DNA of 64,000 nt. Source: Candidatus Poseidoniaceae archaeon (GTDB lineage Archaea; Thermoplasmatota; Poseidoniia; Poseidoniales; Poseidoniaceae). Where the stretch lies: assembly GCA_030747785.1 (NCBI GenBank), contig JASLKC010000024.1, positions 6,235 through 70,234 on the forward strand. Direction: 5' to 3'. Below, piece after piece: positions 1,406 to 62,197 of the stretch (position 1 is the stretch's first letter; each line of letters opens with the position of its first letter). A model generated the notes under the pieces. The model was given only the letters and a program-made list of their open reading frames with translations. It did not search any database and was not told the DNA's origin. The translations under genes were made by a program, and so were the position numbers.

Positions 1406-1420
1406 AGCCCCAAAGGGGCT
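1406..1420. promoter_or_regulatory. Triloop hairpin AGCCCC-AAA-GGGGCT upstream of ileS
   Basis: Perfect 6-bp inverted repeat directly 5' of the TTCAA element at 1424. Confidence 0.5.
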
Positions 1421-1453
1421 GGTTTCAAGTCATGTTCTCATCTGGCGGGGTTC

Positions 1454-4400
1454 ATGGTGGCACCCAAGCCAACCGATGAACTCGATTCAGTCGCTCTTGA
1501 GACTGGTCTCCTAAAGACCTGGTCCGAGGAGGAAGTTTTCGAGAATTCGGTGCAGAATAGAGCCGATGGCGAGCCATTCATTTTCCTTGAGGGACCACCT
1601 ACAGCAAATGGCAAACCGGGTATCCACCACGTTGTAGCTCGTACCTTCAAAGATCTAGTCTGTAGATGGAAAACAATGGAAGGCTATTTTGTTGAAAGAA
1701 AGGGTGGTTGGGATACCCACGGATTACCTGTTGAAATCGAAGTCCAAAAGCGATTGGATTTGATGAGTAATGAGGCGATTGAAGCCTTCGGGATGGAAGA
1801 ATTCAACAAGGAATGTCGAGATTCGGTTTGGACCTATGAGGCAGCATGGCGTGAAATGACCGAACGCATGGCCTATTGGTGTGACCTCGACGAACCATAT
1901 GTAACTCTACATGACAATTACATCGAATCCGGTTGGTGGGCTCTCAAACAGATGTTTGAGAAGGACTTACTCTATCGAGGATACAAGGTTCTGCCATATT
2001 GTCCACAAACTGGGACTTCATATTCCAGTCACGAAGTGGCTCTTGGATACAAAGAAGTCGAGGAGCCATCTGTTTACATCAAATTCAAACTCGAAGATAG
2101 TGATGCTTCAATCCTAGCTTGGACAACCACACCGTGGACTCTTCCGGGAAATGTCGGACTTGCGGTTGGCCCCGATGTCGAATACATCCGTGTTCGTGTT
2201 ACTTCCGAACCTGAAAATTGGGACGGGCATGGTGGAGCCGAAATCGGTGAAGAATTGATTCTCGCCAAGGACCTATTCAAGGAAGTAATTCGTCATCATT
2301 GTGAGGAAGTAGAAACACTACTTGGTAGCGATCTAGTTGGACGCTCGTATGAGCCACTCTTCCCGGGTGCAATCGAGCGTGGAGATTCCAAGACGGCATG
2401 GACTGTTATCGAAGCAGATTGGGTCACTACTACCGATGGAACAGGAGTTGTTCACACCGCGGTAATGTATGGTGAAGATGACTACAATCTAGGGATGGAG
2501 GTAGGGCTTCCTGCACAACATACAGTCGATATCAACGGTGCTTTCCTCAAAGGAACACACCCCGCCCTTGACGGGCGTTATGTGAAGGACTGCGATGCAA
2601 CAATAATCGAACTTCTACATGATACAGGATTACTTTATCGCGAAAAAATGTATACTCACGACTACCCACACTGTTGGAGAACCGGCCATCCTCTTCTCTA
2701 CTATGCAATGGACTCGTGGTTCGTTCGAATGACCGCTGTCAAAGACAGGCTTCTAGAATTCAATTCTCAAGTCGAATGGGCTCCTGATTGGGTAGGCGAA
2801 GGTAGATTTGGTGAATGGTTGCGTAATGTCAAGGATTGGGCAATTAGTCGAGAGAGATATTGGGGCACTCCTCTTCCTGTTTGGATTTGTACCAAATGCG
2901 AACACCAACACTGTGTCGGTTCAAGAGAGGAACTTGCAGCTATGGCAGCAGAAGGAAGCCCGGTTGCTGACGACCTCCATCGCCCATTTGTCGATGACAC
3001 AATTCTTTCATGCCCCGAATGTAATTCCGATATGAAACGCGAACCTTTCGTAATGGATTGTTGGTTTGATTCGGGGTGTGCCTCCTTTGCTCAATGGCAC
3101 CATCCATTTGGAGAGGAAGGAAAATTCGAAAATAATTTCCCGGTTGATTACATCTGTGAAGGTGTTGACCAGACCCGTGGATGGTTCTACACATTACTTG
3201 CAGTAAGCACTACTGTCTTCGATAGCATCTGTTACAAGCGCTGCCTTTCACTTGGCTTGATTCTTGATGCTGAAGGAAAGAAGATGAGCAAATCAAAGGG
3301 TAATATCGTTGACCCGTGGGACCACTTCAACCGGGAAGGTGCAGATGCAACACGCTGGTACATGGTAACTGCAGGAGCGCCTTGGAATCCACTGAAATTC
3401 GACCCCAATGGTGTAAGGGAAACTTATGGCAAGATGTTCCTAACCCTCTGGAATATCCACCGTTTCCATGCTGATTATGCAGCATTAGACGGATTTGATC
3501 CTGATACTTCACCAAAGGGTAAGGAAACTCCACTCGATAAGTGGATTCTTTCTCGTCTAAATCAGGTAATTGCTGCAACTCATGCACAATTCGAGTCCTG
3601 GGATTTCCATAAGGCATGCAGAGGAATTGAGGACTTCATTGTGAACGATGTATCAAATTGGTATGTTCGTAGGAGCCGTCGACGTCTTTGGGATGAAGCT
3701 GCGAGCGAAGATAAGTTATCTTGCCAACACACACTGCACAAGATTCTCGTAACCGTTAGTCGCCTAATAGCGCCGGTTTCACCGTTCATGGCCGATGTGA
3801 TTCACCGAAATCTCGAGGGCGAATCTGTTCACCTTGCTAACTGGCCAGAAGACGGGACTGTCGACGAGGGAATTATCGAAGCTATGGGCCTTGTTCGAGA
3901 ACTTGCCGAAACTGGACGTCGTATTCGTGTCGACAATGACCGTAGACAGCGACTGCCATGCTCAGAAGGATGGATAGTTAGTGGGCCCGACCTCTCTTCA
4001 TTCCACGATATTCTTGCCGAGGAACTCAATGTTGAAACCATATCTCTAGAGAAAGATCTTGACCGATTCCAATCCGAGGTAGTACATCCAAATCGTAGAA
4101 GTCTCGGCGCTAAATGCCGTCAAGACCTACCTGCAGTACTAGCCGGAATCGCCGATGGAGATTCGGAATCGATGCTTGCGAGTATCGAGGCGGGAAATCT
4201 GGTTATCGCTGGCTATGAAATCACGGCTGAGGACATAGAAATTCGCAGAGTTGAGAGAGTTGGATTCGCTGCTGAAACAATCCAGAGTTCGGATGGTTCT
4301 TCAGTATCCTTAGTTCTCGACATGAGCGATACTCCTGAATTGCTTTCCAAGGGACTAGCCCGAGATATTACACGACGTGTCCAAGCCGCACGCAAGGACC

Positions 4401-4594
4401 TCAACCTCGCAATTGAGGAGCAAATCAAACTCGAAGTTTGGACCAAAGATGCGCCCGAACTTTTCGAGTCTGACCTACAATGGATTATCGATGAAACAAG
4501 GGCTTCCAATGCTGAATTCCTAGTTGGTGAAGGTTCTGGTGAAAGTTTCGAAGTGGACGGTGCTACAGTGTGGTATTCGGTCTCTGCTTTGTGA
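1454..4594 (+). CDS. ileS: Isoleucine--tRNA ligase (IleRS2-type)
   Basis: EGPPTANGKPGIHH (HIGH region), GWDTHGLP, WTTTPWTLP, DWAISRERYWG, EGVDQTRGWF, KMSKS. Start moved to ATG 1454. Confidence 0.97.
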   Translation: MVAPKPTDELDSVALETGLLKTWSEEEVFENSVQNRADGEPFIFLEGPPTANGKPGIHHVVARTFKDLVCRWKTMEGYFVERKGGWDTHGLPVEIEVQKRLDLMSNEAIEAFGMEEFNKECRDSVWTYEAAWREMTERMAYWCDLDEPYVTLHDNYIESGWWALKQMFEKDLLYRGYKVLPYCPQTGTSYSSHEVALGYKEVEEPSVYIKFKLEDSDASILAWTTTPWTLPGNVGLAVGPDVEYIRVRVTSEPENWDGHGGAEIGEELILAKDLFKEVIRHHCEEVETLLGSDLVGRSYEPLFPGAIERGDSKTAWTVIEADWVTTTDGTGVVHTAVMYGEDDYNLGMEVGLPAQHTVDINGAFLKGTHPALDGRYVKDCDATIIELLHDTGLLYREKMYTHDYPHCWRTGHPLLYYAMDSWFVRMTAVKDRLLEFNSQVEWAPDWVGEGRFGEWLRNVKDWAISRERYWGTPLPVWICTKCEHQHCVGSREELAAMAAEGSPVADDLHRPFVDDTILSCPECNSDMKREPFVMDCWFDSGCASFAQWHHPFGEEGKFENNFPVDYICEGVDQTRGWFYTLLAVSTTVFDSICYKRCLSLGLILDAEGKKMSKSKGNIVDPWDHFNREGADATRWYMVTAGAPWNPLKFDPNGVRETYGKMFLTLWNIHRFHADYAALDGFDPDTSPKGKETPLDKWILSRLNQVIAATHAQFESWDFHKACRGIEDFIVNDVSNWYVRRSRRRLWDEAASEDKLSCQHTLHKILVTVSRLIAPVSPFMADVIHRNLEGESVHLANWPEDGTVDEGIIEAMGLVRELAETGRRIRVDNDRRQRLPCSEGWIVSGPDLSSFHDILAEELNVETISLEKDLDRFQSEVVHPNRRSLGAKCRQDLPAVLAGIADGDSESMLASIEAGNLVIAGYEITAEDIEIRRVERVGFAAETIQSSDGSSVSLVLDMSDTPELLSKGLARDITRRVQAARKDLNLAIEEQIKLEVWTKDAPELFESDLQWIIDETRASNAEFLVGEGSGESFEVDGATVWYSVSAL

Positions 4595-4619
4595 AAACCG
4601 AAACAGTCGGGTTGAAATC

Positions 4620-4636
4620 TGGCCACATAGTGGCCA
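4620..4636. promoter_or_regulatory. Triloop hairpin TGGCCAC-ATA-GTGGCCA
   Basis: Perfect 7-bp inverted repeat between TTGAA (4612) and the ATG at 4642. Confidence 0.55.
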
Positions 4637-4641
4637 TGCAC

Positions 4642-6051
4642 ATGCGAAGAGGACTCCTCGTCACTCTAATCGTTACCAGCACATTGCTTGCTGGATGCTT
4701 TGGAAACGGAGAGGAAATCATCTCAGAAGAAGAAGTTCGCCCGATATGGGAAGATTACTCCCTAATCGATCAGGCTGGCCACGAAGACTTGCGAGAATTC
4801 GTCACCATCGACCTTCGTACCAATCAATCAACCAACACAAGTTGGGCTGTATTCGACAAAACAAAGGGCGGAAATTGCTGTGAGCATTACCTCGCTACCA
4901 GTATCGAAGGCACCATTATGAATATCGGTGGTGAGTATCCGGTTTGGTCGAATGACCGTGGCCATGAATGGGACACATTTGTCCCAGGAATAATCCCCGC
5001 AAGCACCTGCCGAACTCCAGTTCCAACCAACCCGGGACAAGAAGGACTGGGAGAGGGGAGCATCGTTCAAGCAACCAATGGCGACATTATCTCGATGTCC
5101 TGGTTCCCTTACATCGGTGCCGATGGTAAAATCGACAAGTTCTACGCAATCATCTACGATGATGAAGCCATGGCGTGGAAGTGGTGTTACAATCGTATGA
5201 CTGAACCATTCTATGACCGGTCATGGCAAGTAGAAGTTGTTGGACCGATTTCAAGCAGTATCGGTAGTGGCGATTATGCTAGTCTCGTTGTGTCTAATTT
5301 CTGGCATCAAACACAAAACGCTGGTGGACAAATCAGTGTTGATGGACTAAATTACTACAATTTCCAATTTGCAGGACGAAGTGCAAATCCGCCAGTTGCA
5401 GAGGTTAACCTCAACTATACGGATGCAAATTTGGAGCCCTATTGGGATGTGAACAAGCCACACAAGGAAATGCGTTCGTTCGCTATACCAGAAGGCGGAC
5501 TATACTTCCCTCAGTACTTCAGTGATGGCAGTTCAGCATTCCTTGACACCAGCCTAAATTGGAATAAGCACGATGTGATGTTCCCTTCGGAATACTGCCA
5601 AATCGATTCGGCGGGGGCGATTCATTGTGTATCCCTTGCAGGAACCACTTTCACACACTACCTTTCATGGGATGGTGGACTCAACTGGAGCACTCAAAAT
5701 TACAGTGATGAGAACTGGGCGAGTATCGAAGAATGGGAATTCCAAGCAAATGGAGAACAGGACCTATTCATTCTCAATGTACGTTTCCAAGATGCTAGCG
5801 GCCCAGATGTCGATACTGTCTTCCATGTTCGAGGATATTCCGAGGACATGAGTCCAGATACTCTAACCTACATTGGTCAAGGAGACCTTGATTCGACTTC
5901 AGGTGCTGGTAATGATATCCGATTTGATTTCGCTTCTATTGCCATTCTACGGGATGGTGGAGCGATAATCGCCTTCCATGATTCTACTCACGAAGACCCA
6001 CTCTTTGCTGTTGAAGTTGAGATGCCGGTATACGGCCCAGAAGAAGAGTGA
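4642..6051 (+). CDS. Lipoprotein with Asp-box (BNR) motifs, probable beta-propeller
   Basis: MRRGLLVTLIVTSTLLAGC lipobox; Asp-box-like WSNDRGHEW and LSWDGGLNW. Confidence 0.7.
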   Translation: MRRGLLVTLIVTSTLLAGCFGNGEEIISEEEVRPIWEDYSLIDQAGHEDLREFVTIDLRTNQSTNTSWAVFDKTKGGNCCEHYLATSIEGTIMNIGGEYPVWSNDRGHEWDTFVPGIIPASTCRTPVPTNPGQEGLGEGSIVQATNGDIISMSWFPYIGADGKIDKFYAIIYDDEAMAWKWCYNRMTEPFYDRSWQVEVVGPISSSIGSGDYASLVVSNFWHQTQNAGGQISVDGLNYYNFQFAGRSANPPVAEVNLNYTDANLEPYWDVNKPHKEMRSFAIPEGGLYFPQYFSDGSSAFLDTSLNWNKHDVMFPSEYCQIDSAGAIHCVSLAGTTFTHYLSWDGGLNWSTQNYSDENWASIEEWEFQANGEQDLFILNVRFQDASGPDVDTVFHVRGYSEDMSPDTLTYIGQGDLDSTSGAGNDIRFDFASIAILRDGGAIIAFHDSTHEDPLFAVEVEMPVYGPEEE

Positions 6052-6053
6052 AA

Positions 6054-7853
6054 TCAGCACTGCCTTGCAGCTTCTTCACCATAGTCTTGCATTGGCACTT
6101 GGAATAGATCATCACATGTTCTATTCGCTAGAGGTAGGGTTAGTGTCCCCGTCTCCCAATTAATTGAGTAATCTCCTGCTGCTGCTGGACTTGGAACATA
6201 ATCCTCACCAGTCTGACTAAGGGTAAAGTGAATGCTTTCACCTGCAGCAAGGAATACATCTAGCGGTAAAAATTCAATCATTGCAGTAACCGGTGAAAAT
6301 GGTACTAAACTAGGGCTCCCATCTCTACCGCCTGCATGGAATCTCAGGTCCATTACAGCATGACCAAGATGCATTCCACTATCATCTGTCATCTCTATGA
6401 AAATGTGTCCTGAATTTGTGGTATGGGGAGCAACATCAACATGGAGAGTAGGCATTCCTGCAAGGTATGTATCCTCTGTGAATGGACCATAGGAGAATGT
6501 GATTGGGCCTCTTGCTGATCCCATTATTGCGCCTGTTGGGCTCAAGTCTACAACACTGATTGCAACATATTCTGTATCTACGGATGGCCATGTGGTCTCG
6601 AATCTCCAACCTCCACGGTTGTCTTGTATCTCGACGCCAAGAACTGGAGCTTCGCCCTCGCCCTTCAGATACCAATCGAACCAGTATAGCATCTCATCTG
6701 CCCAGTCCCAGCGTAATCCGTACGGGAATGCCTCTGCTCCACGGCCGGGGCTCTGTCCGGCATGACCCGATTCTCTATCGGGGTAATCATGAGCCCATTG
6801 ACCTGCTAATGTCTTGATCTCAATTCCTGCAGTCTCAGCGATTTGATGAGTTGGAAAAGCCATGTGTGGGTCTACATTCCAATCCTGCATGCCCTGAATA
6901 ATGTAAATTGAACCATTGTAATTCTCCACAACACGGTCAAGGAATGAGCGCTCTGTCCAGTAGTCATTACCTGCATAGTCAACCATTCCACCTGTAAGAT
7001 AAGCCGCAGGACCATTGTAGTATCCTTCCATATACCCTTCACACAAATTCTGTGAATCATCACTATCGCCATCAATACCAAAGGATCCATAGACACCATT
7101 GTGCATTATCATTCCACGTGCTTCCATGCTACCATTACGCCACATTAATTCATGAACACCAATCAGTCCACTCATTGGAACAATAGTTGCGAGATACGGA
7201 TTTCCAAAAGTTGCTGCCTGCCATGGAGTACTTCCATCGTATGATTTACCGATTATTCCGACTTTACCATTGGACCAGCCTTGTGAACCCATCCAGGTGA
7301 CCGCGGCATCGATTCCTCTCTGTTCATCCGTACCCATCAAATCCATGCAATGATTTGATTCACCTGTGCCAAAAACGCTAACCTGAGCAACGCCATAGCC
7401 GTGAGGAACATAATTCTCGATTAAGAAGCGGCCGAGTCTATCAGCTGGAGTGAGGGCGTCTACATCGCCATCGGAGTAGTATGGCCCGATTTCTGCAATT
7501 ACTGGAACCTGACATTCGGGAGTGAGTTCTTCTGCTTCCCAATCACATCCTTCGATTATTGGTAACCACAATCCCAGATGTACTTGGGCATCACCTGTCA
7601 GACCAGCCCCGCCATCGGCAGCAGTTATCGAATCGACATCAACAAAAACACTGCGCACAGCATCAATTCCAAATGAACCATTTACAGAAACGCGACTGAA
7701 AATATCAGTGTCTGCATAAATCAAATCTGCTCTTTCCCAAGGCTGGGGATAACCCGATTCTTCTTCGGGTAATGAGACTATTTCATCCTCTCCGAAACAA
7801 CCGGAAAACATGGCTGGCAACAGAATTACCAGCATAAATAGCGACTTACGCAT
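6054..7853 (-). CDS. CocE/NonD (S15, X-Pro dipeptidyl-peptidase-like) hydrolase lipoprotein
   Basis: FSGC lipobox; GTGES; nucleophile elbow GKSYDG; GMQDWNV (Asp); GQWAH (His); C-terminal jelly-roll-like region. Confidence 0.88.
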
Positions 7854-7866
7854 GCCCTACGGGCAT
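7852..7866. promoter_or_regulatory. Triloop hairpin ATGCCC-GTA-GGGCAT (minus-strand reading) overlapping the start codon
   Basis: Perfect 6-bp inverted repeat; its 3' arm contains the A and T of the CocE gene ATG. Confidence 0.55.
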
Positions 7867-7959
7867 CAGCCAATAGTATTGAGACTATCCATTAGAGGCT
7901 GTAAATTCCAAATTCGTCTAGTGGGTGGGTTCTTGTGCTGTAACCATTTGAGGGAAAAT

Positions 7960-10900
7960 ATGCGCCGAATTATTGTTGCTTTTGTTCTGATTTTTGCAAC
8001 GATTCCTGCTGGATTTGTAACTGCTGATGGAACACACGACGTTGGTTGGACCATCAATACTGAGGATTACAAAGGAGTGACAATTTCAGAAATTCTTGTT
8101 TCCCCTTCCGATGAAGCCCACGATGGAGTTGACTGGAATAGCGATGGAGTGATTGGGATACAAAGTGACCAATACATCGAATTAACCAATGATGGTAGTT
8201 CAATTGTAGACCTTTCAAATTGGACATTAGATGATGATACCAATGGTGGTAGTGCACCATGTCAAATTCTAAACATGAGTATTGCTGTAGGTGAATCTAT
8301 TACATTTTACCGAGCTACTACCAAAATCGCATTGGAATATTTCGATGCTGATTTTGCAGTATTGAAGGAGCCTGATGGTACCATTCAGAGCCAGTTCCAC
8401 TATCCCGGAGAAGATTCGGATTGGGATAAAGTGTATGCTAAGGGCAATAATGGATTGTTGATTAAAGAAGATCCCACTCCCTCTAGCGTTCAAGGCACTT
8501 GTATTGCAGGAAATGCCACCGGCGAACCCGGTGATTATTCAGATAGTGGAGAATGGACAATAAATGAGAATAATTACCTCGGAGTAATGATTTCAGAAAT
8601 ACTTGCATCAACATCTGATGCCGAGAACGGTGGCACTGACTTGGATGGTGATGGCGAACTTTATCGAAATAGTGAGCAATATATTCAATTGACTAATAAT
8701 GGTTCAAATGATGTCGATATTTCAGAATGGATTCTTGACGATAATCCAGCAGGTGGAAGTGCACCGTGCCAAATTGGTTGGGACACAACTATCGCAGTAG
8801 GTGAATCAATAGTGTTCTATCGTGCCAAAACTCACATCGAGTTTGACTATTTCGAGGAGGACTTTGCTGTATTGAAGGAGCCTAGCGGTACCGTGCAGAG
8901 TCAAATTCACTACCCCGCTGAAGATTCATTTTTTGACAAAGCATACACGGTTAATGCAAACGGCTCATTGACAAAAGAAGATCCAAGCCCTGCAAGTCGA
9001 CATGGTACTTGCTTCCCACTACCTGATAATTCAGAGGATACCTACATTTTGCAGGGCCGGGTTGTTACAATGTCTGGCGAAAATAACGTTATCGAAGATG
9101 GTAATGTAATGATAGAAGATGGGAAAATAGTTGCTGTTTGGGCTGATGATGAGATTCCTCCAATCAATACCGATGGAATCACAACCTATGATACTGAAGC
9201 CTCGATTTACCCTGGTTTAATCGATTTACACAATCATATGCATTACAATCACATTCCTCTTTGGGACTTTAATGTGCACTTGTCTGATTCTCAGAAATCT
9301 GATGAAGGCGGTTACGAAAATCGTTACCAATGGGGAAATAACTGGGACTATGGTCCAAGCATTACTTGGATGAAGAACAATGTTCAGGATTACAATCGCT
9401 GGGACATGTCTTCTGAGCAAATGAAGTACGCGGAAGTACAAGCTGTTGCTGGAGGAGTTACGGCTGTTCAAGGGTCACCCTCTAGCGGTACCGATCCATG
9501 GGATTCTATGCTATCTCGAAATGTAGAGTTATACAATTTCGGCCAAGATGGAATGTACACCTGCGCAGTATGTGGTCCAACTGAAGGTGATTACAATGCT
9601 GACTACATTATTGATAAGAATATATCCGGATCTCTAAATGCTTGGTTTGTACATCTTTCAGAAGGTGTAGATTCCAGTAGTAAATCTGAGTTTGATACCC
9701 TATACAATAAGGGATTAATCATGGATGAAACTGTAGTGATTCATGGTACTGCTCTGGACCAAAGCCAATTTGAAAAGATGGGAGATAAAGGGGCCGGGCT
9801 AGTATGGTCTCCAATCTCCAATCTACTTTTGTATGGAGATACAACTGATGTTGTCGCTGCAGATAACGCAGGTGTGACAATCTCTCTAGCACCAGATTGG
9901 GGCCCAAGTGGTTCAAAGAATAATCTTCATGAATTGAAAGTAGCTGACCTTTGGAACAAGGATGTTCTAGGCAATCATTTCAGCGACTATGAGTTAGCTG
10001 AAATGGTAACAAGTAATCCTGCTGAGATTAGTAATTGGCAAGGTTTCGTTGGTCAAATCAAACCGGGCATGTATGCTGATTTAATGGTAGTAGACTCATT
10101 CCATGAAAATCCATATCGCAATCTAATTGATGCAATTGACCCTGATATTCGTCTAACAATCGTACATGGAAAGGCTGTATTTGGGGACATAGACATCATG
10201 ACTGCAATGAACGGTGATGATTGGGAATACATCAATGGAAGTGGATTTGCCAAAGCAGTAGATGTTACCTCGCCTTCGGAAACCGAGGGAATGCAAACTT
10301 GGGTTGAGATTGAATCGGGTTTGTCCATGGCAATGCGCAATGAATTTGTGGACATTAAGGCAAACTGGAACGATGTATCGGGCATGACCGATTCAGAGAT
10401 TAATGATTGGCTCGATACAACCTTTGATGGAGATTACAAAGACAATGTTAATCATTTGAAAAATATGACATTAGACCCGATTTTTACAATACATGATGAG
10501 AGGTATTTCGACGTAATTAATCGTTCAGCCCACGCAAATTTCCACATTGACATGTCAAAACTCTACGACTACTATGACATTGCATATGATGCAAATTCGA
10601 ATCGCCCATACATCACAGATTCAGACTACTCCAACGATACAAATGTTGACCCCGGACCAGATCCAGACCCTGATCCAATGAAGGAGGGATGCATGGACTC
10701 GGATGCGACAAACTTCGACAGTCTAGCAGAGGTCGATGATGGTACATGTGTGTACCCACAGGCAGATTCTGATGGGCCGTGTGTAGGAATTTGTGGAACT
10801 GGTGATGATTCCACAGCAGGAGAAAATGGAGTTGGAACGAATACAATCTTGATTACTGTTGCATCGTTCATTCTTGCTATAATCTTCATTGGGGCATTGA

Positions 10901-11031
10901 TTATGAATGTCGCAAAGAAAGGCGATGAAGAATATGTTTCTGAATTGGAAGTTTCAAACGCAATAGCGGAAAATTCTGATGCAAGGGTTCCAGAATTACC
11001 CCCAGTAGGTCCACCTCCAGGTGGACTGTGA
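7960..11031 (+). CDS. Membrane-anchored extracellular amidohydrolase with two N-terminal lamin-tail (LTD) domains
   Basis: Signal peptide MRRIIVAFVLIF; two repeats ISEIL..QYI(E/Q)LTN.G...VD(L/I)S.W.LDD; PGLIDLHNH, VHLSEG, IHGT and APDW metal ligands; GCMD..ATNFD..A..DDGTC motif; C-terminal TM and Pro-rich tail. Confidence 0.85.
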   Translation: MRRIIVAFVLIFATIPAGFVTADGTHDVGWTINTEDYKGVTISEILVSPSDEAHDGVDWNSDGVIGIQSDQYIELTNDGSSIVDLSNWTLDDDTNGGSAPCQILNMSIAVGESITFYRATTKIALEYFDADFAVLKEPDGTIQSQFHYPGEDSDWDKVYAKGNNGLLIKEDPTPSSVQGTCIAGNATGEPGDYSDSGEWTINENNYLGVMISEILASTSDAENGGTDLDGDGELYRNSEQYIQLTNNGSNDVDISEWILDDNPAGGSAPCQIGWDTTIAVGESIVFYRAKTHIEFDYFEEDFAVLKEPSGTVQSQIHYPAEDSFFDKAYTVNANGSLTKEDPSPASRHGTCFPLPDNSEDTYILQGRVVTMSGENNVIEDGNVMIEDGKIVAVWADDEIPPINTDGITTYDTEASIYPGLIDLHNHMHYNHIPLWDFNVHLSDSQKSDEGGYENRYQWGNNWDYGPSITWMKNNVQDYNRWDMSSEQMKYAEVQAVAGGVTAVQGSPSSGTDPWDSMLSRNVELYNFGQDGMYTCAVCGPTEGDYNADYIIDKNISGSLNAWFVHLSEGVDSSSKSEFDTLYNKGLIMDETVVIHGTALDQSQFEKMGDKGAGLVWSPISNLLLYGDTTDVVAADNAGVTISLAPDWGPSGSKNNLHELKVADLWNKDVLGNHFSDYELAEMVTSNPAEISNWQGFVGQIKPGMYADLMVVDSFHENPYRNLIDAIDPDIRLTIVHGKAVFGDIDIMTAMNGDDWEYINGSGFAKAVDVTSPSETEGMQTWVEIESGLSMAMRNEFVDIKANWNDVSGMTDSEINDWLDTTFDGDYKDNVNHLKNMTLDPIFTIHDERYFDVINRSAHANFHIDMSKLYDYYDIAYDANSNRPYITDSDYSNDTNVDPGPDPDPDPMKEGCMDSDATNFDSLAEVDDGTCVYPQADSDGPCVGICGTGDDSTAGENGVGTNTILITVASFILAIIFIGALIMNVAKKGDEEYVSELEVSNAIAENSDARVPELPPVGPPPGGL

Positions 11032-12513
11032 TTAGTTAAGGTCCCAAGTTGGTCCTTCGGGAGTATCGGTAACAACAACACCCAACGCATTGAGTTCATC
11101 GCGTATTGCATCGGCAGAAGGCCAATCCTTCGCCTCTCTTGCTACAACTCTTCGTGCGAGAAGTGACTCTACTTGTTCGGCGATTTCTGCCTTTCTCGGG
11201 TCCTCTTCAGGCTCTAACATCACTTGCTCTCGTGAGGGGAGAACTCCCAAGACATCACCGGCGGTATCCTCGAGCCATTCGACAACATGTAAGGCGTATG
11301 CAGCTACATCATCTCCATCGAGTTCGGTTAACATGCGGCTCATTTCACGCAATGCACCAAGCACTTTTGCACATGCCTCTCGGGAATTGAAATCATCATC
11401 CATAGCCTTGGCGAATCCTTGGGCCATCTTCTCTAGGAGTCCAAGACTCTTGACAATTGGAACAGCACTGGCAATATCTCCCTCGGGTAAAGGAACCGGA
11501 TCTTCTCCCATTAATTCCAGAGCAGCTTTGTACACACTGATTAATCGCTCGTGATTCTTTGCTGCATCTTTGATGAGTTGTTCATTCATATCGATTGGTG
11601 AGCGATAATGAGCATTGATGAGTGAAAATCGTAATACAAGTGGGTCAACCTTGCCGAGTATGTCTTCAATCGTCCAGAAGTTACCCAATGACTTACTCAT
11701 CTTTTCTCCATCGATATTTACGAATCCATTGTGAAGCCAATGATGAACAACTGGTGAACACCCAGTATGGCACTCACCTTGGAAAATCTCTGCCTCATGA
11801 TGAGGGAATAACAAATCATGACCTCCACCGTGGATGTCGAATTGCTCTCCAAATGCATCCATGCTCATTGCAGTACATTCGATGTGCCAGCCCGGTCTAC
11901 CTGGCCCCCACGGTGAATCCCATGTCGGTTCACCGGGCTTCGCCGCTTTCCACAATGCGAAATCCTTGTGATCACGCTTGGTCGCACCAGTATCATCGAC
12001 TCTGCCCCCAGCACCTGAACGTACTGCATCGATATTCTGTCCTGTAAGGAGTCCATATTTTTCAGGAGCACTATCAACGCTGAAGTAGACTCCATCGTCT
12101 GCCGCATAGGCATTACCTTTCTCAATCAGGTCGGCAGTAATTGCAATCATCTCTTCCACATACTCTGTACATCGAGGGTACTGGTCTGCTCTCAGAATGT
12201 TAAGGGTATCCATATCGCGGAAATATGTGGCGATATTATCTTCGACAAGTTCTCTCCAATCGCTGCCGGTTTCATTGGCTCGATTGATGATTTTATCATC
12301 GATATCTGTGAAATTTTGTACATATTCTACATCATACCCTGACTTTTCAAGCCAACGATGAATCAAGTCGAATGCAAGATAGCATCTTGCATGACCAAGA
12401 TGGCAAAGGTCGTAGACAGTGACGCCGCAAATATACATCTTCACACGCCCAGGTTCCATAGTCGAGAAGTCGACCTTCTCACGGCGCCTAGTGTCGTGTA
12501 CACGTAGTGGCAT
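11032..12513 (-). CDS. cysS: Cysteine--tRNA ligase
   Basis: [50 protein letters not shown]. Start moved to ATG 12513. Confidence 0.97.
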
Positions 12514-12529
12514 CACCCCTTCGGGGTGA
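12513..12529. promoter_or_regulatory. Triloop hairpin TCACCCC-GAA-GGGGTGA (minus-strand reading) at the cysS start
   Basis: Perfect 7-bp inverted repeat ending on the A of the cysS ATG; TTGAA 30 nt upstream. Confidence 0.55.
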
Positions 12530-12586
12530 ATCGTCCTATTCAACGATGTGGGCATGGCTTGAAGACAAGAGGCCCAATGGGCACTC

Positions 12587-13549
12587 ATGGCAGGTCCAGT
12601 CGTTGTCACCGGCGTGAATGGCCACATTGGCAATAATCTTGCTAGAGACTTGCTTGCAAATGGTTACTCGGTGAGAGGGACTGTTCGCGATTTAAGCAAA
12701 ACCCCAGATCTCGATATCGAAGTTATGGTTGCAGATGTATTGTCCACCGATGGTTGGGCCCCAGTACTCGAAGGCGCTAGTGGTCTTTTTCATCTTGCTA
12801 CAATCTATGCTACTAGCGGTAATGGGCAATTGATTATCGATACTGCTAATCGCGGCACTGAGAACGTATTAAGGGCCGCTGCAGCTGCTGGAATCAAACG
12901 TGTTGTATACACTTCATCTGTTGCAGCAATTGGCTCGTTACCTCTTGGGGTAAAAGATGAATCCAACTGGAATGAGAATTTTTCATTACCCTATACAAGA
13001 GCAAAAACCGAATCTGAAAAACGGGCATGGGAATTGGCTGAAGAATTGGATTTGGACCTTCGTGTTATCAATCCAAGCGGCGTTCTTGGTGGCAGTTTCT
13101 CCAGACCTACTCCTTCAACAGATGTTATCGGTGATGCACTGAAAGGAAAATATCCCATAGTACCCAAAATACCTCTCGCATTCGTTCATGTAAACGATGT
13201 GGCAAAGGCACACCGGCTTGCATTTGAGAATGATGATGCTCACGGGAGATATATTCTCGCACCGCACCAAGACACAGATATTCACAAGTTATTGAAGAGG
13301 GGAAAGGAATTGTATCCAAAATCAAAACTTCCAAAAATCGGGCTTTCGCTTTGGCTACTGCCGGTTGTAGTATTCCAGGATTGGTTCCAAGGAATTTTCA
13401 CAGGGAAACGCATGCTTACGAGAAAAGCTGCGAAAGCTTTTGCCAGAGGAGATTCAAAATACAGTAGTGCAAAAGCCGAGAAAGAACTAGGAATGGAGTG
13501 GATGTCTATCGATGATTGCATCCGTGATACTGTGGAGGCTTACCTATGA
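12587..13549 (+). CDS. NAD-dependent epimerase/dehydratase (extended SDR, dihydroflavonol-reductase-like)
   Basis: VTGVNGHIG Rossmann motif, TSSVAA, YTRAK catalytic YxxxK, FVHVNDVA. Confidence 0.9.
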   Translation: MAGPVVVTGVNGHIGNNLARDLLANGYSVRGTVRDLSKTPDLDIEVMVADVLSTDGWAPVLEGASGLFHLATIYATSGNGQLIIDTANRGTENVLRAAAAAGIKRVVYTSSVAAIGSLPLGVKDESNWNENFSLPYTRAKTESEKRAWELAEELDLDLRVINPSGVLGGSFSRPTPSTDVIGDALKGKYPIVPKIPLAFVHVNDVAKAHRLAFENDDAHGRYILAPHQDTDIHKLLKRGKELYPKSKLPKIGLSLWLLPVVVFQDWFQGIFTGKRMLTRKAAKAFARGDSKYSSAKAEKELGMEWMSIDDCIRDTVEAYL

Positions 13550-14205
13550 TTGAAGACAAACTAGCAGCACGTCTGGGGTGGTCAATCCCTGCTGCCACAA
13601 TTACTCTCTCCACACTTGTTCATGCAATTTCAGGTAATGCTCGTGCCATTCCTTTCTTCATTAGCGAAGGTGACCATCCTGGACTTGAGCGATGGATTTT
13701 CACCGCTGGTCTTGCTTTTTCCGGCCTAGTATTGATGTGGGTCTCATGGAGATTATTCCAAGTAAAACGCGAAGGTTCACGCTGGTATTGGATTCACCTT
13801 TCCCTCCTCGCTGGACTTTGGGTTGGTGGAAATCTCACAATAATGTCATTCATGGATATGTATGACCATCCAGAAATGCATGTCATAACCGCACTGAATG
13901 TATTCCATTTCGGCCTTGTATGGGGCGTACTTGCACATCTTGCGATAAAAGACGGAAATCTCGCAGGCAAAAAACTCAGAATGGCTTCGATTATACTCGC
14001 TTTCACATCGTTTTGGATAATGACTTGGACTATGGGTGAGGCTTTCGCGGAAAACCCTGAAGCGCTCACGCCCCCACTTGCGCTTAGCGAAGTACAAGGC
14101 TGGATAGACTATGCTGCACCAGCCGAATATCTCTTGGCTGTAGGATTAATTTTGACTCTAGCATCATTTGAGAAAGATTTCGATTCCAATGAGGAAGAGG
14201 AGTGA
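13546..14205 (+). CDS. Multi-pass membrane protein, Frag1/DRAM/Sfk1-like
   Basis: About 6 hydrophobic segments; PFFISE..HPGLERWIF and C-terminal EY resemble the family pattern. Confidence 0.6.
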   Translation: MIEDKLAARLGWSIPAATITLSTLVHAISGNARAIPFFISEGDHPGLERWIFTAGLAFSGLVLMWVSWRLFQVKREGSRWYWIHLSLLAGLWVGGNLTIMSFMDMYDHPEMHVITALNVFHFGLVWGVLAHLAIKDGNLAGKKLRMASIILAFTSFWIMTWTMGEAFAENPEALTPPLALSEVQGWIDYAAPAEYLLAVGLILTLASFEKDFDSNEEEE

Positions 14206-14206
14206 A

Positions 14207-14848
14207 ATGCCAACATTACTCATCGTAGATCTTCTTGCCGAACGCGAGGCTTTCGGAGAGCATGGTACTGGTGAAATTGTGCGGCATTTTCCCGGCTATG
14301 AAGTTCTACTTTGGGCACCTCATACTGAAAATCCCAGAGAGTATCCTTTCGGGGAAAGAATCGAATCTCCTGTTGAACACGATGTATTATTCATCACAGG
14401 TAGTAGACGCAATGTTTCGATGTGGGAGCCTTGGATGGACGAAGTCGCAGAACTGATTCGCTCGAGTGAGGCCCCCATCTATGGAATCTGTTTTGGCCAT
14501 CAGATAATTTGCAGTGCTTTGGGTGGCAAAGTAATACGAGAAGAAGTTGGGAGCCATTTTGTCGCACCAGTTCACTATCTCGATGGCCGAGTAGTAGACC
14601 AATTATTCACACATCAAGATCATGTGGTTGATGCTGGCGAAATGGAAGTAATCGCATCTTCTGAACACTGCGAAATCGTTGCATGCAAGCACCCTACCAG
14701 GGAAATAAGCACAGTGCAATTCCATCCTGAATCAGTCCAGTCCGTGCTAGAACATTCACTGATATGTGGCGATATGACTATCGAAGAAAGGATGGCTTTT
14801 GGCGAGGGTATTCAAACCCTCGATGTGGCACAATCACTCTTCCTCTGA
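14207..14848 (+). CDS. Class I glutamine amidotransferase-like protein
   Basis: ITGS, GICFGHQ (Cys nucleophile), HQD, QFHPE. Confidence 0.9.
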   Translation: MPTLLIVDLLAEREAFGEHGTGEIVRHFPGYEVLLWAPHTENPREYPFGERIESPVEHDVLFITGSRRNVSMWEPWMDEVAELIRSSEAPIYGICFGHQIICSALGGKVIREEVGSHFVAPVHYLDGRVVDQLFTHQDHVVDAGEMEVIASSEHCEIVACKHPTREISTVQFHPESVQSVLEHSLICGDMTIEERMAFGEGIQTLDVAQSLFL

Positions 14849-16864
14849 TTTCAAAGCAGTGATTTTTTCATCATTTGCTTTGATCTGTTGCCATACGATT
14901 TCGGCAATATCCTTGACTTCGATATCCGAGCCTATTGAAGAGAGTCCATCTGTAACCATTGTCGAACAGAATGGGCAACCTACTGCTACTGTATTAGCAC
15001 CAGTTGAGGCCAACTCCTTAGCACGAATTATATTCACGCGGTCGTGGTCATCGTCCACATGTTCTTCCATCCACATTTGCGCACCTCCTGCTCCACAGCA
15101 GAAAGAGTTCCTACCATGGTTTTCAGTCTCGATATCAACTCCGCCAATCGCATCTCGAGGAGCGTCGATTTCTCCACCGATTCTACCGAGATAACACGGG
15201 TCGTGGTAAGTGATGTTTCCATCGTGGCCAGGTTCCGGTAATTTTCCTTCACCCTGAAGATGATTGATTAACTGAGAGTGGTGCATGACCTCGATATCTT
15301 CACCGCCGAAGTCCTTGTATTCTGTTCCAAGAGTATGGAAACAATGAGGGCAGGACGCTACGATTTTCTTTACTCCAATCTCCTCAAAGGTAGCAAGATT
15401 TGTCTCAGCGAGCATTTGGAATAGATACTCATTTCCTGCACGTCGTGCTGCATCACCGCTACAACCTTCTTGCATTCCGAGGATTCCAACATCTAGACCT
15501 GCCTCTTTCATAATGGAAATAGTGTCACGTGCAACCTTCTTGTTGCGCTCATCGAATGAAGCTGCACAACCTGCGAAGTAAATGTACTCTGCAGCCTCTC
15601 CAACTTTAACATCGAGATCATTTGCCCAGTCACCACGCTCATGCATTGGAATTCCATAGGGGTTGGAATCGCTTTCGAGATTCTCGATAGTGGACATTAG
15701 TGGCATAACGGTCTCTTCGACCTTCTCATCAAACTCCATGCGTTCCATCATCAAGTGACGACGAGCATCGGTCAATTTTGGTACATGCTCGATATTTACC
15801 GGGCAAACATCGACACATGCATTGCAAGTTGTACAAGCCCAAATCGCTTCTTCACCAAAACGAGTGATAATGTCCTCCTCGGGTTGTTCTCCCTTGAGAA
15901 GTAATTGAGCATGGTCGTTTGCATATCCTCTGACATCGTGAATAATCTGCATAGGGTTGAGGGCTTTTCCACTAGCATATGCGGGACAAACATCTTGACA
16001 TCGCGCACAGGAAGTACAAGCCCAACCATCAATCAAACTGCGCCAGGTTAGTTGTGTATACTGAGAGGCCCCAAATGTCTCTATGTCGAGATCATCGAGA
16101 GGAACCGCTGTTCCATTTTCATCCATTTGGAGAGGACGCATCTTACCAACAGGCTGGGTATCGAAAAAGAAAACATTTGGTAATGCCATTACTAAGTGCA
16201 TATGTTTGGATAATGGTATTAGGAAAAGGAAGGTACAAATCGCCACCATATGTGCCCAGTATGCGATATTTACAGTGCTTTGACTAGGCGAATATGTATC
16301 GGCAACCCATGCACCAATCATTTCCCAAGTCTTGTGAGGACCCTCTCCTGCTTCAACCACGAAAGCAGTAGTACAGATTGTCATTATCAATAATAGAATG
16401 ACATTACCTTCGAGTTGGCTCTTGCCCTTCAATTTCTCAGGAGTGAAAAGCACCCTGCGATTTAGTGCGAGGAAACAACCGATTAAGGCGCTGGTATATC
16501 CAAGTTCAACCATCGCATTCCAAGCAGGGTTAAGCAAATCTGGCAATAGATATTCAGAGAACCTATTTCCCGATGCAAGGTCGAACATGTCCGTGGAAAG
16601 CATGAGGAATCCCCAGAACATGAGAACGTGCATTCCTCCCGCTACAGGGTCTTCCAATACCTTGCGTTGGCCAAGCCAAACAGATGCTGTTTCTTTGAGG
16701 CGCTTACCCCATGAATCGAAGCGATTATCTTTTGCGCCGAGCCTAACAAGCCGTGTTGCTTTGATGACTTGGTAAGAAAAGAAACCAATTGAAACTACAC
16801 CGAGAACCAGAAGGATGTACCAACCGGATATACCCGAATAGCTGACATCGAGTGGGTGCTGCAT
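14834..16864 (-). CDS. Membrane-bound Fe-S oxidoreductase (FadF/HdrD-like, CCG domains)
   Basis: N-terminal TM region; two CxxCxxCxxxCP ferredoxin motifs; SCPHC, YHDPCYLGR, CCGAGG, GCPFC. Confidence 0.9.
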   Translation of the reverse strand: MQHPLDVSYSGISGWYILLVLGVVSIGFFSYQVIKATRLVRLGAKDNRFDSWGKRLKETASVWLGQRKVLEDPVAGGMHVLMFWGFLMLSTDMFDLASGNRFSEYLLPDLLNPAWNAMVELGYTSALIGCFLALNRRVLFTPEKLKGKSQLEGNVILLLIMTICTTAFVVEAGEGPHKTWEMIGAWVADTYSPSQSTVNIAYWAHMVAICTFLFLIPLSKHMHLVMALPNVFFFDTQPVGKMRPLQMDENGTAVPLDDLDIETFGASQYTQLTWRSLIDGWACTSCARCQDVCPAYASGKALNPMQIIHDVRGYANDHAQLLLKGEQPEEDIITRFGEEAIWACTTCNACVDVCPVNIEHVPKLTDARRHLMMERMEFDEKVEETVMPLMSTIENLESDSNPYGIPMHERGDWANDLDVKVGEAAEYIYFAGCAASFDERNKKVARDTISIMKEAGLDVGILGMQEGCSGDAARRAGNEYLFQMLAETNLATFEEIGVKKIVASCPHCFHTLGTEYKDFGGEDIEVMHHSQLINHLQGEGKLPEPGHDGNITYHDPCYLGRIGGEIDAPRDAIGGVDIETENHGRNSFCCGAGGAQMWMEEHVDDDHDRVNIIRAKELASTGANTVAVGCPFCSTMVTDGLSSIGSDIEVKDIAEIVWQQIKANDEKITALKSEEE

Positions 16865-16866
16865 TA

Positions 16867-16883
16867 AGCCCACGAAGTGGGCT
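16867..16883. promoter_or_regulatory. Triloop hairpin AGCCCAC-GAA-GTGGGCT
   Basis: Perfect 7-bp inverted repeat 2 nt from the ATG at 16864, in the divergent gap with mvk. Confidence 0.55.
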
Positions 16884-16924
16884 CACGACTTCAACCCAAC
16901 GGAGAAGTACCGGGGACGCAACGC

Positions 16925-18028: not shown

Positions 18029-18038
18029 CGGATTTGCC

Positions 18039-51060: not shown

Positions 51061-51077
51061 GTAGCCCGTAGGGCTAC
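51061..51077. promoter_or_regulatory. Triloop hairpin GTAGCCC-GTA-GGGCTAC upstream of csl4
   Basis: Perfect 7-bp inverted repeat 27 nt before the ATG at 51105. Confidence 0.55.
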
Positions 51078-60736: not shown

Positions 60737-62123
60737 GCGCTTTGGAAAGATAAGGTGGCAAATCCTCAGCTACCATTCCGGGGCCTAATTCTTCACCGGC
60801 ATTTTCACCAGCAACCCGCATCAAATAGACTCCAAGTCTACTTGCAGCCCACGGAGAAAGTCCCAGTCCTAACAGACCACCAATACAGCCTGCGAGTAAG
60901 TCGCCAGTTCCGCCCATTGCCATACGCGGATTTCCACCACTCGCAATTCCTCCGCGCCCGGCTGCTCCGACTATGATGTCCTTTGCACCAGTCCGAACCA
61001 CGACACGGGTCTCACCCCCTCCGAGCAATAGAGATGGTATCGAATCGATATCGCCAATCCAATTCTCTAACTCAACCTGATGGGGTGTTACAACTCCAAC
61101 CAATTGCTCAGGCCAGCCCTCAAGTGCCCTAATTGCATCAGCATCGATAACCTTTGGAATCGAAGGAGTGGCTTCGATAATCATCTTCACAGCCTCAAGA
61201 CTCACGGGGTCATGCCCCATCCCTGGTCCAATCACAAGTGCTTGCACTCCCCTTCCGGTTAGGCAGCGTTTGACAATCGAGGAAGGGTCTGAGATTATGT
61301 CGGCATCACTCATCTGTTCTGGAATCAATTCGCTTGGCCATTTTGCCCGTGCACTTGCATTACTCGGCATGGCCACATGTACTAGGTCAACGCCCATTCG
61401 GGCTGCAGCCATTCCTGCTAGAATTGGAGCTCCATGAAACGGTCCTCCTCCAACGATTAGAACGCGGCCACGATCGCCTTTGACTTGCCCGGGTTTGGGC
61501 ATTGGGTAACGTAGTAAATCCCCCGGCCCAGGGTCTAGTGTCTCTTCAGGCCAACCAAGGGGAGCAATGAATAGGTCTCCGACCTCAGGTAATAAGCGAC
61601 TTTCTGAATCGACCATATTGGATTTTGGTGCTTCGAAAGTCACCGTACGGAATGCATTGAATGATACTCCGGAGCCGCACCCTGTTGGCATATCGCATGC
61701 TAGTACCATTGGACGTCCGGGTAATGCTTCCATCAAACGAAGGACCTCGCCTCTTGGCTTACCTGATGCTCCCGCTCCAAGTAAGCAATCTACAATCACA
61801 GCAGGCGCTTGTTCTGGAAAAGAATCTACTGTGTGGATTTCTCTTTTGCAATCCTCTCTAGCACGCTGTGCGAGTTGGGTTTTTTGTTTGGCATGAGTAG
61901 CAATAACTGCGCAGTCTTCGAGCATTTCAGCAAGGCGAAAACCGTCCCCTCCATTATTGCCCGGACCGCAAAGAATCCAGATTGGAGTTGGGGCTCCTTC
62001 GAGCGCTTCTGCTAAATGAGTGGCTGCGGATAACATCAACTCATCCATGTCAACTCCGAGTGCTTCGGCATTGGCATCGAGCACGGCGACCTCGTCTGGA
62101 GTGAGAATCCAACGGGGGCGCAT
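60729..62123 (-). CDS. nnr: Bifunctional NAD(P)H-hydrate epimerase/dehydratase (YjeF)
   Basis: CGPGNNGGDG, DCLLGAG, DMPTG, KGDRG, GPGMG, IDADA, TPH..E, GGTGDLLAG. Confidence 0.92.
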   Translation of the reverse strand: MRPRWILTPDEVAVLDANAEALGVDMDELMLSAATHLAEALEGAPTPIWILCGPGNNGGDGFRLAEMLEDCAVIATHAKQKTQLAQRAREDCKREIHTVDSFPEQAPAVIVDCLLGAGASGKPRGEVLRLMEALPGRPMVLACDMPTGCGSGVSFNAFRTVTFEAPKSNMVDSESRLLPEVGDLFIAPLGWPEETLDPGPGDLLRYPMPKPGQVKGDRGRVLIVGGGPFHGAPILAGMAAARMGVDLVHVAMPSNASARAKWPSELIPEQMSDADIISDPSSIVKRCLTGRGVQALVIGPGMGHDPVSLEAVKMIIEATPSIPKVIDADAIRALEGWPEQLVGVVTPHQVELENWIGDIDSIPSLLLGGGETRVVVRTGAKDIIVGAAGRGGIASGGNPRMAMGGTGDLLAGCIGGLLGLGLSPWAASRLGVYLMRVAGENAGEELGPGMVAEDLPPYLSKALT

Positions 62124-62180
62124 GAAGGTGGCACTGCCATCAAAGCCTTTCATTGAAGCGGTATGGTGATGAATGTCCCT

Positions 62181-62197
62181 ATGCTCCGTAGGAGCAT
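62181..62197. promoter_or_regulatory. Triloop hairpin ATGCTCC-GTA-GGAGCAT overlapping the icmF start
   Basis: Perfect 7-bp inverted repeat; its 3' arm contains the A and T of ATG 62196. Confidence 0.55.

Follow-up and report, generated by a model that had tools for sequence, protein, structure and literature searches.

The window considered here is a stretch of 64,000 nucleotides from a Candidatus Poseidoniaceae archaeon (assembly GCA_030747785.1, contig JASLKC010000024.1, positions 6,235 to 70,234), and it encodes giant PKD, LTD, CARDB and subtilase proteins that are typical of marine group II. Twelve short perfect inverted repeats at or between its genes had been pointed out in a sequence-only reading of the window. 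We found all of them where that reading had placed them: eleven have a 3-nt loop (triloops) and one a GTAA tetraloop, and their perfect stems of 6-8 bp are closed at the loop by a C-G pair. They represent a family of about 120-170 short, GC-rich perfect palindromes, with an A/T-rich loop of 3 nt or sometimes 4 nt. The intrastrand pairing of this family is kept by strong purifying selection in Candidatus Poseidoniales. The twelve window sites are as follows:

1406-1420: 6-bp stem, AAA loop; between divergent promoters; the isoleucyl-tRNA synthetase gene, with a conserved ATG near 1453, has its TATA-like TTTCAAG (1423-1429) 2 nt downstream of the site
4620-4636: 7-bp stem, ATA loop; lipoprotein-like gene, with the upstream stop codon 26 nt before the site; between TTGAA (4612-4616) and ATG codons at 4636 and 4642
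7852-7866: 6-bp stem, TAC loop; shares 2 nt with the minus-strand start codon (7853) of gene 6054-7853
12513-12529: 7-bp stem, TTC loop; begins on the A of a minus-strand start codon, which a minus-strand TTGAA (12539-12543) precedes by 30 nt
16867-16883: 7-bp stem, GAA loop; 2 nt from a minus-strand start codon (16864), with a minus-strand TTGAA at 16890-16894, 30 nt upstream of the start
23813-23829: 7-bp stem, ACA loop; preceded by a GGAGG-like run, and includes the ATG (23826) of a giant protein with PKD domains
39525-39542: 7-bp stem, GTAA tetraloop read on the minus strand; subtilase-like gene, 8 nt upstream of its minus-strand start at 39516
39573-39589: 7-bp stem, GTA loop; overlaps the stop codon of the minus-strand gene 39588-40670, and so adjoins a stop, not a start, with the next start 57 nt downstream
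41728-41742: 6-bp stem, TAC loop; 13 nt past the upstream stop, between TTCAAG (41718-41723, at -32; TATA score 7.5) and the ATG at 41750
45375-45393: 8-bp stem, GAA loop; fills the 10-nt gap of two divergent open reading frame (ORF) starts, its 3' arm being a Shine-Dalgarno-like GGTGA on both strands
51061-51077: 7-bp stem, GTA loop; in a tandem spacer, with an ATG (51105) 28 nt downstream
62181-62197: 7-bp stem, GTA loop; 5' end of a plus-strand gene at a divergent junction, with in-frame ATGs at 62163, 62181 and 62196

Nine of these sites (4620, 7852, 12513, 16867, 23813, 39525, 41728, 45375 and 62181) lie at most 8 nt from a candidate start codon, where the sequence-only reading had counted eight; the remaining three are farther off, and two of them (1406 and 51061) lie about 30 nt upstream of a candidate start. 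Site 23813 is the least certain family member because of its rare loop and its second pair, which is G-C. Folded as single-stranded DNA, each of the twelve sites gave the expected single hairpin, with energies of -4.8 to -9.2 kcal/mol. A tRNA scan of the window found no tRNA gene, and an Rfam scan at gathering thresholds found no match.

We compared the window with 100 dinucleotide-preserving shuffles. It contains 52 perfect inverted repeats with a loop of 3 nt and a stem of at least 6 bp (19.2±4.3 in the shuffles), 22 of which are C-G-closed (4.2±2.2). The C-G-closed repeats with a purine-N-A (R-N-A) loop, or T-N-Y when read on the other strand, number 17 and include all eleven triloops listed above, while the shuffles contain 1.16±1.07 and at most 5. 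We then extended the count to the whole genome (1.83 Mb in 59 contigs, 86% complete), for which gene starts and spacers were taken from crude ORF calls (1476 genes, 95.8% of the genome coding). Among all triloop repeats with arms of at least 6 bp, C-G was the commonest closing pair (316, versus 172-243 for the others). The loops of the C-G-closed repeats were most often GTA/TAC (70), followed by ATA (29), GAA (21) and AAA (19), with at most 14 for any other loop. C-GTA-G stems with an exact length of 1 to 10 bp occur 1326, 363, 94, 33, 23, 31, 34, 4, 0 and 1 times, which is a geometric chance decay plus a separate class peaking at 6-7 bp.

The signal is concentrated in junction regions, which we defined as the spacers plus 60 nt into the gene 5' ends (160 kb). 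These contain 119 C-G-closed triloops versus 8.35 in shuffles, and 49 C-G-closed tetraloops versus 8.0, whereas the other hairpin classes are only 2-3x enriched. By closing base, the intergenic triloops divide into C (119), T (22), A (16) and G (12). The stems of the 119 are 6 (46 copies), 7 (50), 8 (18), 9 (4) or 10 bp (1) long. Their loops are GTA (52, pooled with TAC), ATA (19), GAA (11), AAA (7), TAA (7) and 18 rarer ones. R-N-A loops make up 99 of the 119, with TAA/TTA (7) as the recurrent exception, and 67 are G-N-A (GTA, GAA, GGA or GCA), while ATA, AAA and TAA together account for 33. The genome-wide scan against shuffles that had been proposed with the sequence-only reading thus revealed enrichment both of spacer copies and of particular loops. 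Its rule that every loop is purine-N-A holds as a strong preference but is not absolute, considering that TAA occurs and that GCA and GGA are rare. The excess in the window (17 versus 1.16) and in the junction regions (119 versus 8.35) excludes a chance origin.

The arms of the 119 triloops share a composition. The 5' arm is C-rich at every position, so that the 3' arm is G-rich on both strands, and C occupies position 2 in 91 copies and position 3 in 74. Their sequences are otherwise diverse, with 77 distinct arms over the inner six positions, the commonest of which was seen six times, and the pairing runs on into variable outer positions. What unites the family is therefore a structure and no recurring sequence, in line with the earlier suggestion that these sites are structures rather than fixed operators. 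The inner bias could nevertheless reflect operators, read either by one transcription factor on a fixed CCC-N3-GGG core or by many factors, and passages of one study place archaeal operators on either side of the TATA box (PMC4158304). However, a dimer that reads the core needs no outer complementarity, whereas here the pairing extends 3-5 bp past the core into variable sequence, stem lengths form a separate 6-7 bp peak, and the outer pairs are selected and change by compensation, as described below. These features, together with the number of distinct arms, make operators of either kind highly improbable. Two further sequence-based candidates were rejected. A slipped UNCG tetraloop, as a reading of the TAC and TTC loops, needs C-runs of at least three, and the ATA, AAA and TAA loops do not fit it. 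General mimicry of Shine-Dalgarno sequences does not agree with the 3' arm consensus GGGG, in which position 3 is the A or T that GGAGG or GGTG would require in only 18 and 12 of the 119 copies, nor with the Shine-Dalgarno frequency of hairpin-bearing genes, which is close to the genome rate.

Selection on pairing was assessed in relatives belonging to Candidatus Poseidoniales, Poseidoniaceae or Thalassarchaeaceae (marine group II). In the closest relative, G008 (735 kb compared; 89% nucleotide identity over window positions 1-20000), 70 intergenic C-G-closed hairpins differed at 1.4% of stem, 12.9% of loop and 8.2% of flank positions. The corresponding values for 125 chance hairpins in coding DNA were 10.3%, 14.3% and 11.4%. 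For the 42 triloops with family loops the stems had not changed at all (0/570), compared with 17/126 loop positions (13.5%) and 157/2100 flank positions (7.5%). Eleven loops had changed over unchanged stems, and two of the changes were exact inversions (ATA to TAT and GTA to TAC).

A more distant congener, G124 (798 kb compared; flank identity 66.5%), revealed the covariation that had been sought as a check on the sequence-only reading. A perfect hairpin of at least 5 bp is kept at 43 of 57 alignable sites, 24 of them with the same stem and 19 with a changed stem that still pairs, although a few of these 19 are doubtful or duplicates of overlapping calls; the other 14 sites have none. Control positions 60-150 nt away in the same alignments had a hairpin in 19 of 406 cases. 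Compensations include an outer G-C to T-A change (C14:51816), C-G to G-C (C7:28080) and T-A to C-G (C59:9425), and one pair was symmetrically inserted or deleted at C8:13663 and C7:49805. A further case comes from group IIb records, in which the loop of a 9-bp hairpin supplies the ATG of a membrane-protein gene 30 nt past a TTGAATA box. This hairpin is conserved in eight loci, and the ninth has a compensatory T-A to C-G change; by itself the nine-locus alignment is weak evidence, since it shows a single compensatory pair and is equalled in score by 56 of 500 shuffles. Within the genome, 12 stems of 7 bp contain one internal non-Watson-Crick pair (GT/TG in three of them) versus about 7 expected, next to 54 perfect ones.

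These comparisons bear on the idea that the palindromes are non-functional, arising by template switching or fold-back repair in unconstrained spacers or as transposed REP-like repeats. Such a by-product would agree with the perfection of the copies and the scarcity of decaying ones, with loop inversions and with a patchy abundance among genera and species. Yet the G008 stems fall about 40 differences short of the flank rate, and arm-to-arm self-correction predicts a near-neutral rate of compensatory change, of which none was seen at 89% identity. The copies also share no sequence. We consider a by-product to have very little chance of being correct. The REP-like variant is excluded by the 77 distinct inner arms and by a search for the Y1 transposase (PF01797), which was not found in the 86%-complete genome, while control genomes responded.

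At the level of single sites, the hairpins turn over between relatives. Site 16867 is an example: no genome other than its own and that of G008 has it in perfect form, G020 carries a 5-bp version, and others show only partial complementarity. Site 1406 has the same stem but a GTA loop in G008, and different stems or none in other relatives. The G008 copy of site 4620 is identical. The stem of site 7852 is identical in G008, G009 and G020, with an ATA loop in G009, and G011 has no hairpin there. Site 12513 has an identical stem in G008 and G009 (with a TAT loop in the latter), while G011 and G021 lack the left arm. At site 62181, both stem and loop are identical in G124 despite differing flanks.

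Two other features concern the region of site 16867. Window positions 16884-16903 hold a motif of 14-15 nt, CCTTCAACCCAACGG, between an HdrD-like and a GHMP-kinase gene (loci L071-L139). It is almost invariant across Poseidoniales, even where a stop codon falls in the overlapping frame (L084), and it probably contains the BRE/TATA for the gene on the minus strand, or else is a shared regulatory element. Near the GHMP-kinase gene, ten loci (L073, L075, L081, L084, L085, L087, L094, L099, L121 and L145) also have a 6-7 bp palindrome with a TTCGAC arm and an AAA or AAG loop, which probably falls within conserved coding sequence and does not belong to the family.

The 17 C-G-closed R-N-A palindromes of the window include six in addition to the listed triloops, all within or at the edge of long ORFs. 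At least some of these look like chance occurrences:

1193-1209: 119 nt inside the longest-ORF start; in G008 the stem is conserved and the loop is different
5149-5163: pairing lost in G008
16993-17007: unchanged in G008, but the coding sequence there is conserved
22581-22597: additional palindrome
34067-34081: additional palindrome
34179-34193: additional palindrome

The family is unevenly distributed across the lineage. It is present in G008 and G124, which are of the same genus, and in G039 from another family, and it is about five times rarer in the congener G015 (400 kb sampled). As a proxy for abundance we compared the 9-mer CCCGTAGGG with its reversed control. The 9-mer was enriched in all 10 genomes searched from the same genus and in one genus of another family. 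Many of the order's other genera (151 genomes) had a weak signal or none, and 49 genomes from elsewhere in the phylum showed no enrichment. This proxy misses families with less C-rich stems, such as that of G039. In the spacer upstream of the isoleucyl-tRNA synthetase gene, 14 among the 30 loci listed have a C-G-closed triloop, built on five unrelated stems; one of these stems is common to three genera of another family and carries four different loops.

We next looked at where in the genome the hairpins lie. With spacers defined by the longest ORFs, 64 of the 120 GTA, ATA or GAA hairpins are intergenic and 31 are within 100 nt of a longest-ORF start, while the rest are within 30 nt of a stop (3) or deeper in ORFs (22, several near the gene end). 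The 70 C-GTA-G hairpins divide into 22 at divergent, 34 at tandem and none at convergent junctions, plus 14 far from any junction, in a genome with 245 divergent, 931 tandem and 241 convergent junctions. Strict spacers carry 1.81 hairpins per kb at tandem, 1.17 at divergent and 0.43 at convergent junctions, and the convergent spacers hold three tetraloops and no triloop. A C-G-closed tri- or tetraloop was found in 76 of 364 tandem, 32 of 163 divergent and 4 of 42 convergent spacers of at least 30 nt, so that roughly one in five start-containing spacers carries a family hairpin. The association with gene starts that had been noticed in the window therefore extends to the genome as a tie to tandem and divergent spacers. 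Around the stem edges, ATG and stop codons showed no sharp pile-up at a fixed offset, with a mild excess of ATG at the 3' edge.

Intrinsic terminators can be excluded as an explanation. TTTT within 12 nt downstream occurs in 6 of 238 hairpin flanks (2.5%), compared with 3.2% in the intergenic background; convergent spacers contain no triloop, and none of the 70 C-GTA-G hairpins lies at a convergent junction. A separate class of hairpins in this genome does have the form of terminators. At C30:4220-4239 and C7:4968-4987, convergent spacers contain a hairpin with a T-run, a TTCG tetraloop and an extended G/C stem, and both are kept in G124 with compensatory pair changes.

Two more observations concern the spacers themselves. 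The genome is compact, with a median gap of 0 nt between convergent genes, which abut or overlap, and of 9 nt between tandem genes, and several divergent start codons lie 10-40 nt apart, so that neighbouring promoters must interleave. A stretch of 1005 nt without ORFs between convergent genes (C26:85063-86068) contains repeated words such as CCATTGGA and GTTTCC...GGAAA, and may be an unannotated RNA gene or a repeat array.

To relate the hairpins to promoters, we examined sequences upstream of genes. The commonest upstream hexamers are Shine-Dalgarno words of the GGAGGTGA family, and about a quarter of the spacer-preceded genes carry GGAGGTGA-type Shine-Dalgarno sequences. In 285 upstream regions without such words, an expectation-maximization motif search returned nTT[C/G]A[A/T] (TTSAW). 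In 103 of these regions the core of the motif precedes the ATG by about 30 nt, which is the TATA-box geometry of leaderless mRNAs. This motif appears to be the TATA-box equivalent of the lineage, which would imply many leaderless mRNAs, and it bears out the putative TATA-equivalent of the sequence-only reading.

Among 88 hairpin-gene pairs, about half of the hairpins lie between the box and the ATG, with the 3' arm ending at -11 to +4; in some of these, the ATG falls within the stem or 3' arm or is made of the loop and the closing G. At sites 12513, 16867, 41728 and 4620 of the window, the hairpin stands between the start codon and a TTSAA that precedes this codon by 30-32 nt. The earlier proposal that the hairpin stands between box and start is thus true of a subset with leaderless geometry and does not extend to the family, in which no position is fixed and half of the hairpins are elsewhere. 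A start predicted from the box lies 13-26 nt after the 5' edge of the hairpin in 88 matches versus 53 expected, in a broad distribution. Boxes that would place the RNA 5' end at the hairpin edge (offset 0) showed no excess around the hairpins.

The hairpins are indifferent to gene direction. Relative to the downstream gene, 36 loops were purine-first and 29 T-first, with GTA and TAC in 19 and 16 cases, which agrees with the original observation of G-N-A loops on either strand. Loops of the TNY sense were slightly nearer to the upstream stop (Mann-Whitney p=0.03, 29 versus 36 cases), a difference too weak to build on.

The mechanism that we prefer, at a probability of about 0.4, is that the element acts at the level of DNA, as a hairpin in the promoter region. 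Its perfect palindrome would allow both strands to fold once the promoter region is unwound, either by open-complex formation or by negative supercoiling upstream of a transcribing polymerase. In this folded state, by itself or bound by a structure-specific protein, the element would modulate or insulate initiation at one or more neighbouring promoters. An element of this kind would be neither an mRNA structure of the downstream gene nor a terminator, a transcription-factor operator or a transposed repeat. That wobble pairs are not tolerated (12 imperfect stems versus about 7 expected) points to DNA rather than RNA. A strong loop preference without orientation preference, with loops flipping between relatives, likewise points to DNA, or at least to a strand-symmetric function. 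In the subset with leaderless geometry, an RNA that starts at the ATG cannot hold both arms; at least five such cases lie in divergent spacers, with the hairpin between a well-placed TATA-like box and the ATG. The combination of C-G closure and G-N-A loops is that of a stable DNA mini-hairpin, and the presence of a GyrA-like gene in the genome makes negative supercoiling plausible.

Several points weigh against this mechanism. All transcription starts are predicted ones. About half of the hairpins lie upstream of the box or directly past the stop codon of the upstream gene, and TATA-like matches are enriched on both sides of the hairpins without a sharp peak. The lack of a fixed geometry to box or start codon argues against a precise role in the initiation complex, and the rarity of the family in the part of G015 sampled shows that the element is dispensable. 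The loops stray from the G-N-A rule of DNA hairpins, since GCA (1) and GGA (3) are rare whereas ATA (19), AAA (7) and TAA (7) are common, and a stem of 6-8 bp whose loop-proximal pairs are G/C does not readily extrude as a cruciform. Some stems have Shine-Dalgarno-like 3' arms or lie just upstream of a Shine-Dalgarno sequence, which suits roles in RNA, and RNA reading through a tandem spacer would include the hairpin. For triloops, convergent spacers are truly depleted, yet the power of this comparison is limited, as there are only 42-50 such spacers and many contain tRNA genes.

Some of these points lead to a reading in which the hairpins work in RNA, in transcripts that cross the spacers: read-through or polycistronic messages, 5' leaders, and upstream or antisense RNAs. 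There, as stable stem-loops of general use, they could protect ends, punctuate or guide processing, block read-through into the following promoter, or keep start codons and Shine-Dalgarno sequences covered. The compensatory evolution and the freely varying loops suit RNA equally well. Many tandem-spacer copies abut the upstream stop, including 8 of 16 with TAC-sense loops that lie within 15 nt of it, two examples immediately precede a Shine-Dalgarno sequence and have a TATA-like box about 25 nt ahead of their 5' edge, and some 3' arms are themselves Shine-Dalgarno-like. The two TTCG terminators, which have T-runs and evolve by compensation, show that the organism does use RNA hairpins. Conversely, RNA hairpins would not predict the lack of excess of G-U-compatible variants or the absence of any stem change relative to G008, nor a strong loop preference that has no orientation bias. 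Triloops are missing from convergent spacers, where 3' ends meet, and T-runs do not follow the hairpins. Divergent spacers, into which no upstream gene is read through, hold about 30 hairpins, at least five of them between a well-placed box and the ATG of a gene with leaderless geometry; boxes that set the RNA 5' end at the hairpin edge are not enriched. Taken together, a role in RNA is possible, and we hold it to be doubtful.

The apparently unconstrained placement within spacers would instead suit a structure-specific DNA site that is independent of promoters. Candidates are hairpins formed in single-stranded DNA during replication or repair, or palindromes recognized by a topoisomerase, an SMC-like protein or a junction protein in chromosome organisation, and they would be intergenic only because coding sequence cannot accommodate palindromes. 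There is about one hairpin per spacer whether the spacer has one promoter (76/364 tandem) or two (32/163 divergent), and the symmetry and strict Watson-Crick pairing fit such a site. Bacterial REP/BIME elements, which bind gyrase, offer a precedent. The partner protein of this explanation is hypothetical, and it does not account for the modest enrichment of TATA-like boxes directly upstream or, within the limited power noted above, for the missing triloops in convergent spacers. We regard it as unlikely. The more far-reaching form of the DNA-level promoter mechanism, in which DNA mini-hairpins are a widespread cellular promoter-region element in Poseidoniales that sets output or shields neighbouring promoters, also seems rather unlikely to us. 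In this form the palindrome would sit within or next to the core promoter, in many cases occupying the whole interval from the TATA-like box to the start codon of a leaderless gene. If it is true, it would be the first cellular and the first archaeal counterpart of the hairpin promoters of phage N4, and a structure-specific protein would be a possible reader.

The promoters of the N4 virion RNA polymerase are DNA hairpins with a short stem (5-7 bp) and a 3-nt loop just upstream of the transcription start, in which structure outweighs stem sequence and negative supercoiling is required. The elements described here have a similarly short stem (6-10 bp, mostly 6-7) and a 3-nt loop. N4 has few such promoters, at a fixed distance to the start and with conserved flanking bases, and they are used by a single-subunit phage polymerase. 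In contrast, the archaeal elements occupy more than 100 sites of a cellular genome with a TATA-like box of the TBP/TFB type, and apparently have no fixed spacing to the predicted starts; no polymerase of the N4 kind is known for them, no search aimed at a single-subunit enzyme having been made.

A second relative is the C-G-closed G-N-A triloop d(cGNAg), a stable DNA mini-hairpin motif according to the passages available of PMC3201870. The closing pair is the same, and G-N-A loops form the majority of the 119. However, d(cGNAg) is a thermodynamic motif, while ours is a genomic element in which GTA far outnumbers GAA, GCA is nearly absent, and ATA, AAA and TAA are common.

The REP/BIME elements of RAYT transposases have a shared consensus and imperfect pairing and lie mostly at 3' ends. 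They resemble our family as small extragenic palindromes, hundreds to a genome, that are patchily distributed among relatives. They differ from it in that each copy here has its own stem, perfect pairing and a place in start-containing spacers, with no Y1 transposase found. With intrinsic terminators, the family shares the conservation of structure over sequence, a GC-rich stem, a C-rich 5' arm and compensatory evolution. It lacks their T-run and wobble pairs and has no convergent triloops, and the terminators of this genome are TTCG tetraloops. Chloroplast intergenic hairpins also undergo flip-flop inversions of the loop, as seen here between close relatives over unchanged stems, but those are mostly RNA-stability elements of 3' untranslated regions with longer, AT-rich stems, whereas the present stems are shorter and GC-rich.

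A broad 2026 survey of perfect inverted repeats, in the parts available, reports that they concentrate in intergenic regions and upstream of transcription start sites across life (PMC13155455). It counted only arms of at least 10 bp, which leaves elements of 6-8 bp outside its scope, and these passages describe no loop-defined or lineage-specific family. The available main text of a start-site study of group II archaea in the Red Sea mentions neither a promoter motif nor a hairpin (PMC5069720). Full-text literature searches found no account of this family, as the sequence-only reading had supposed. Structure-defined intergenic hairpins are already known as a kind; the present family may prove more unusual than that.

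Marine group II archaea are uncultured and among the most abundant archaea of the surface ocean, and to our knowledge next to nothing has been described of their gene regulation. The present results document a strongly selected, structure-defined class of non-coding sequence in these organisms, together with a TTSAW box at leaderless distance. Such a feature is missed by annotation pipelines and by surveys of inverted repeats with long-arm cut-offs. The family offers concrete sites for the mapping of transcript ends in metatranscriptomes and for transcription tests in vitro. If the hairpins act on RNA, they would constitute a system of transcript punctuation or stabilisation in a very compact genome. 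If they act on DNA, promoter function that depends on hairpins, so far that of one phage, would reach into the transcription of cellular archaea.

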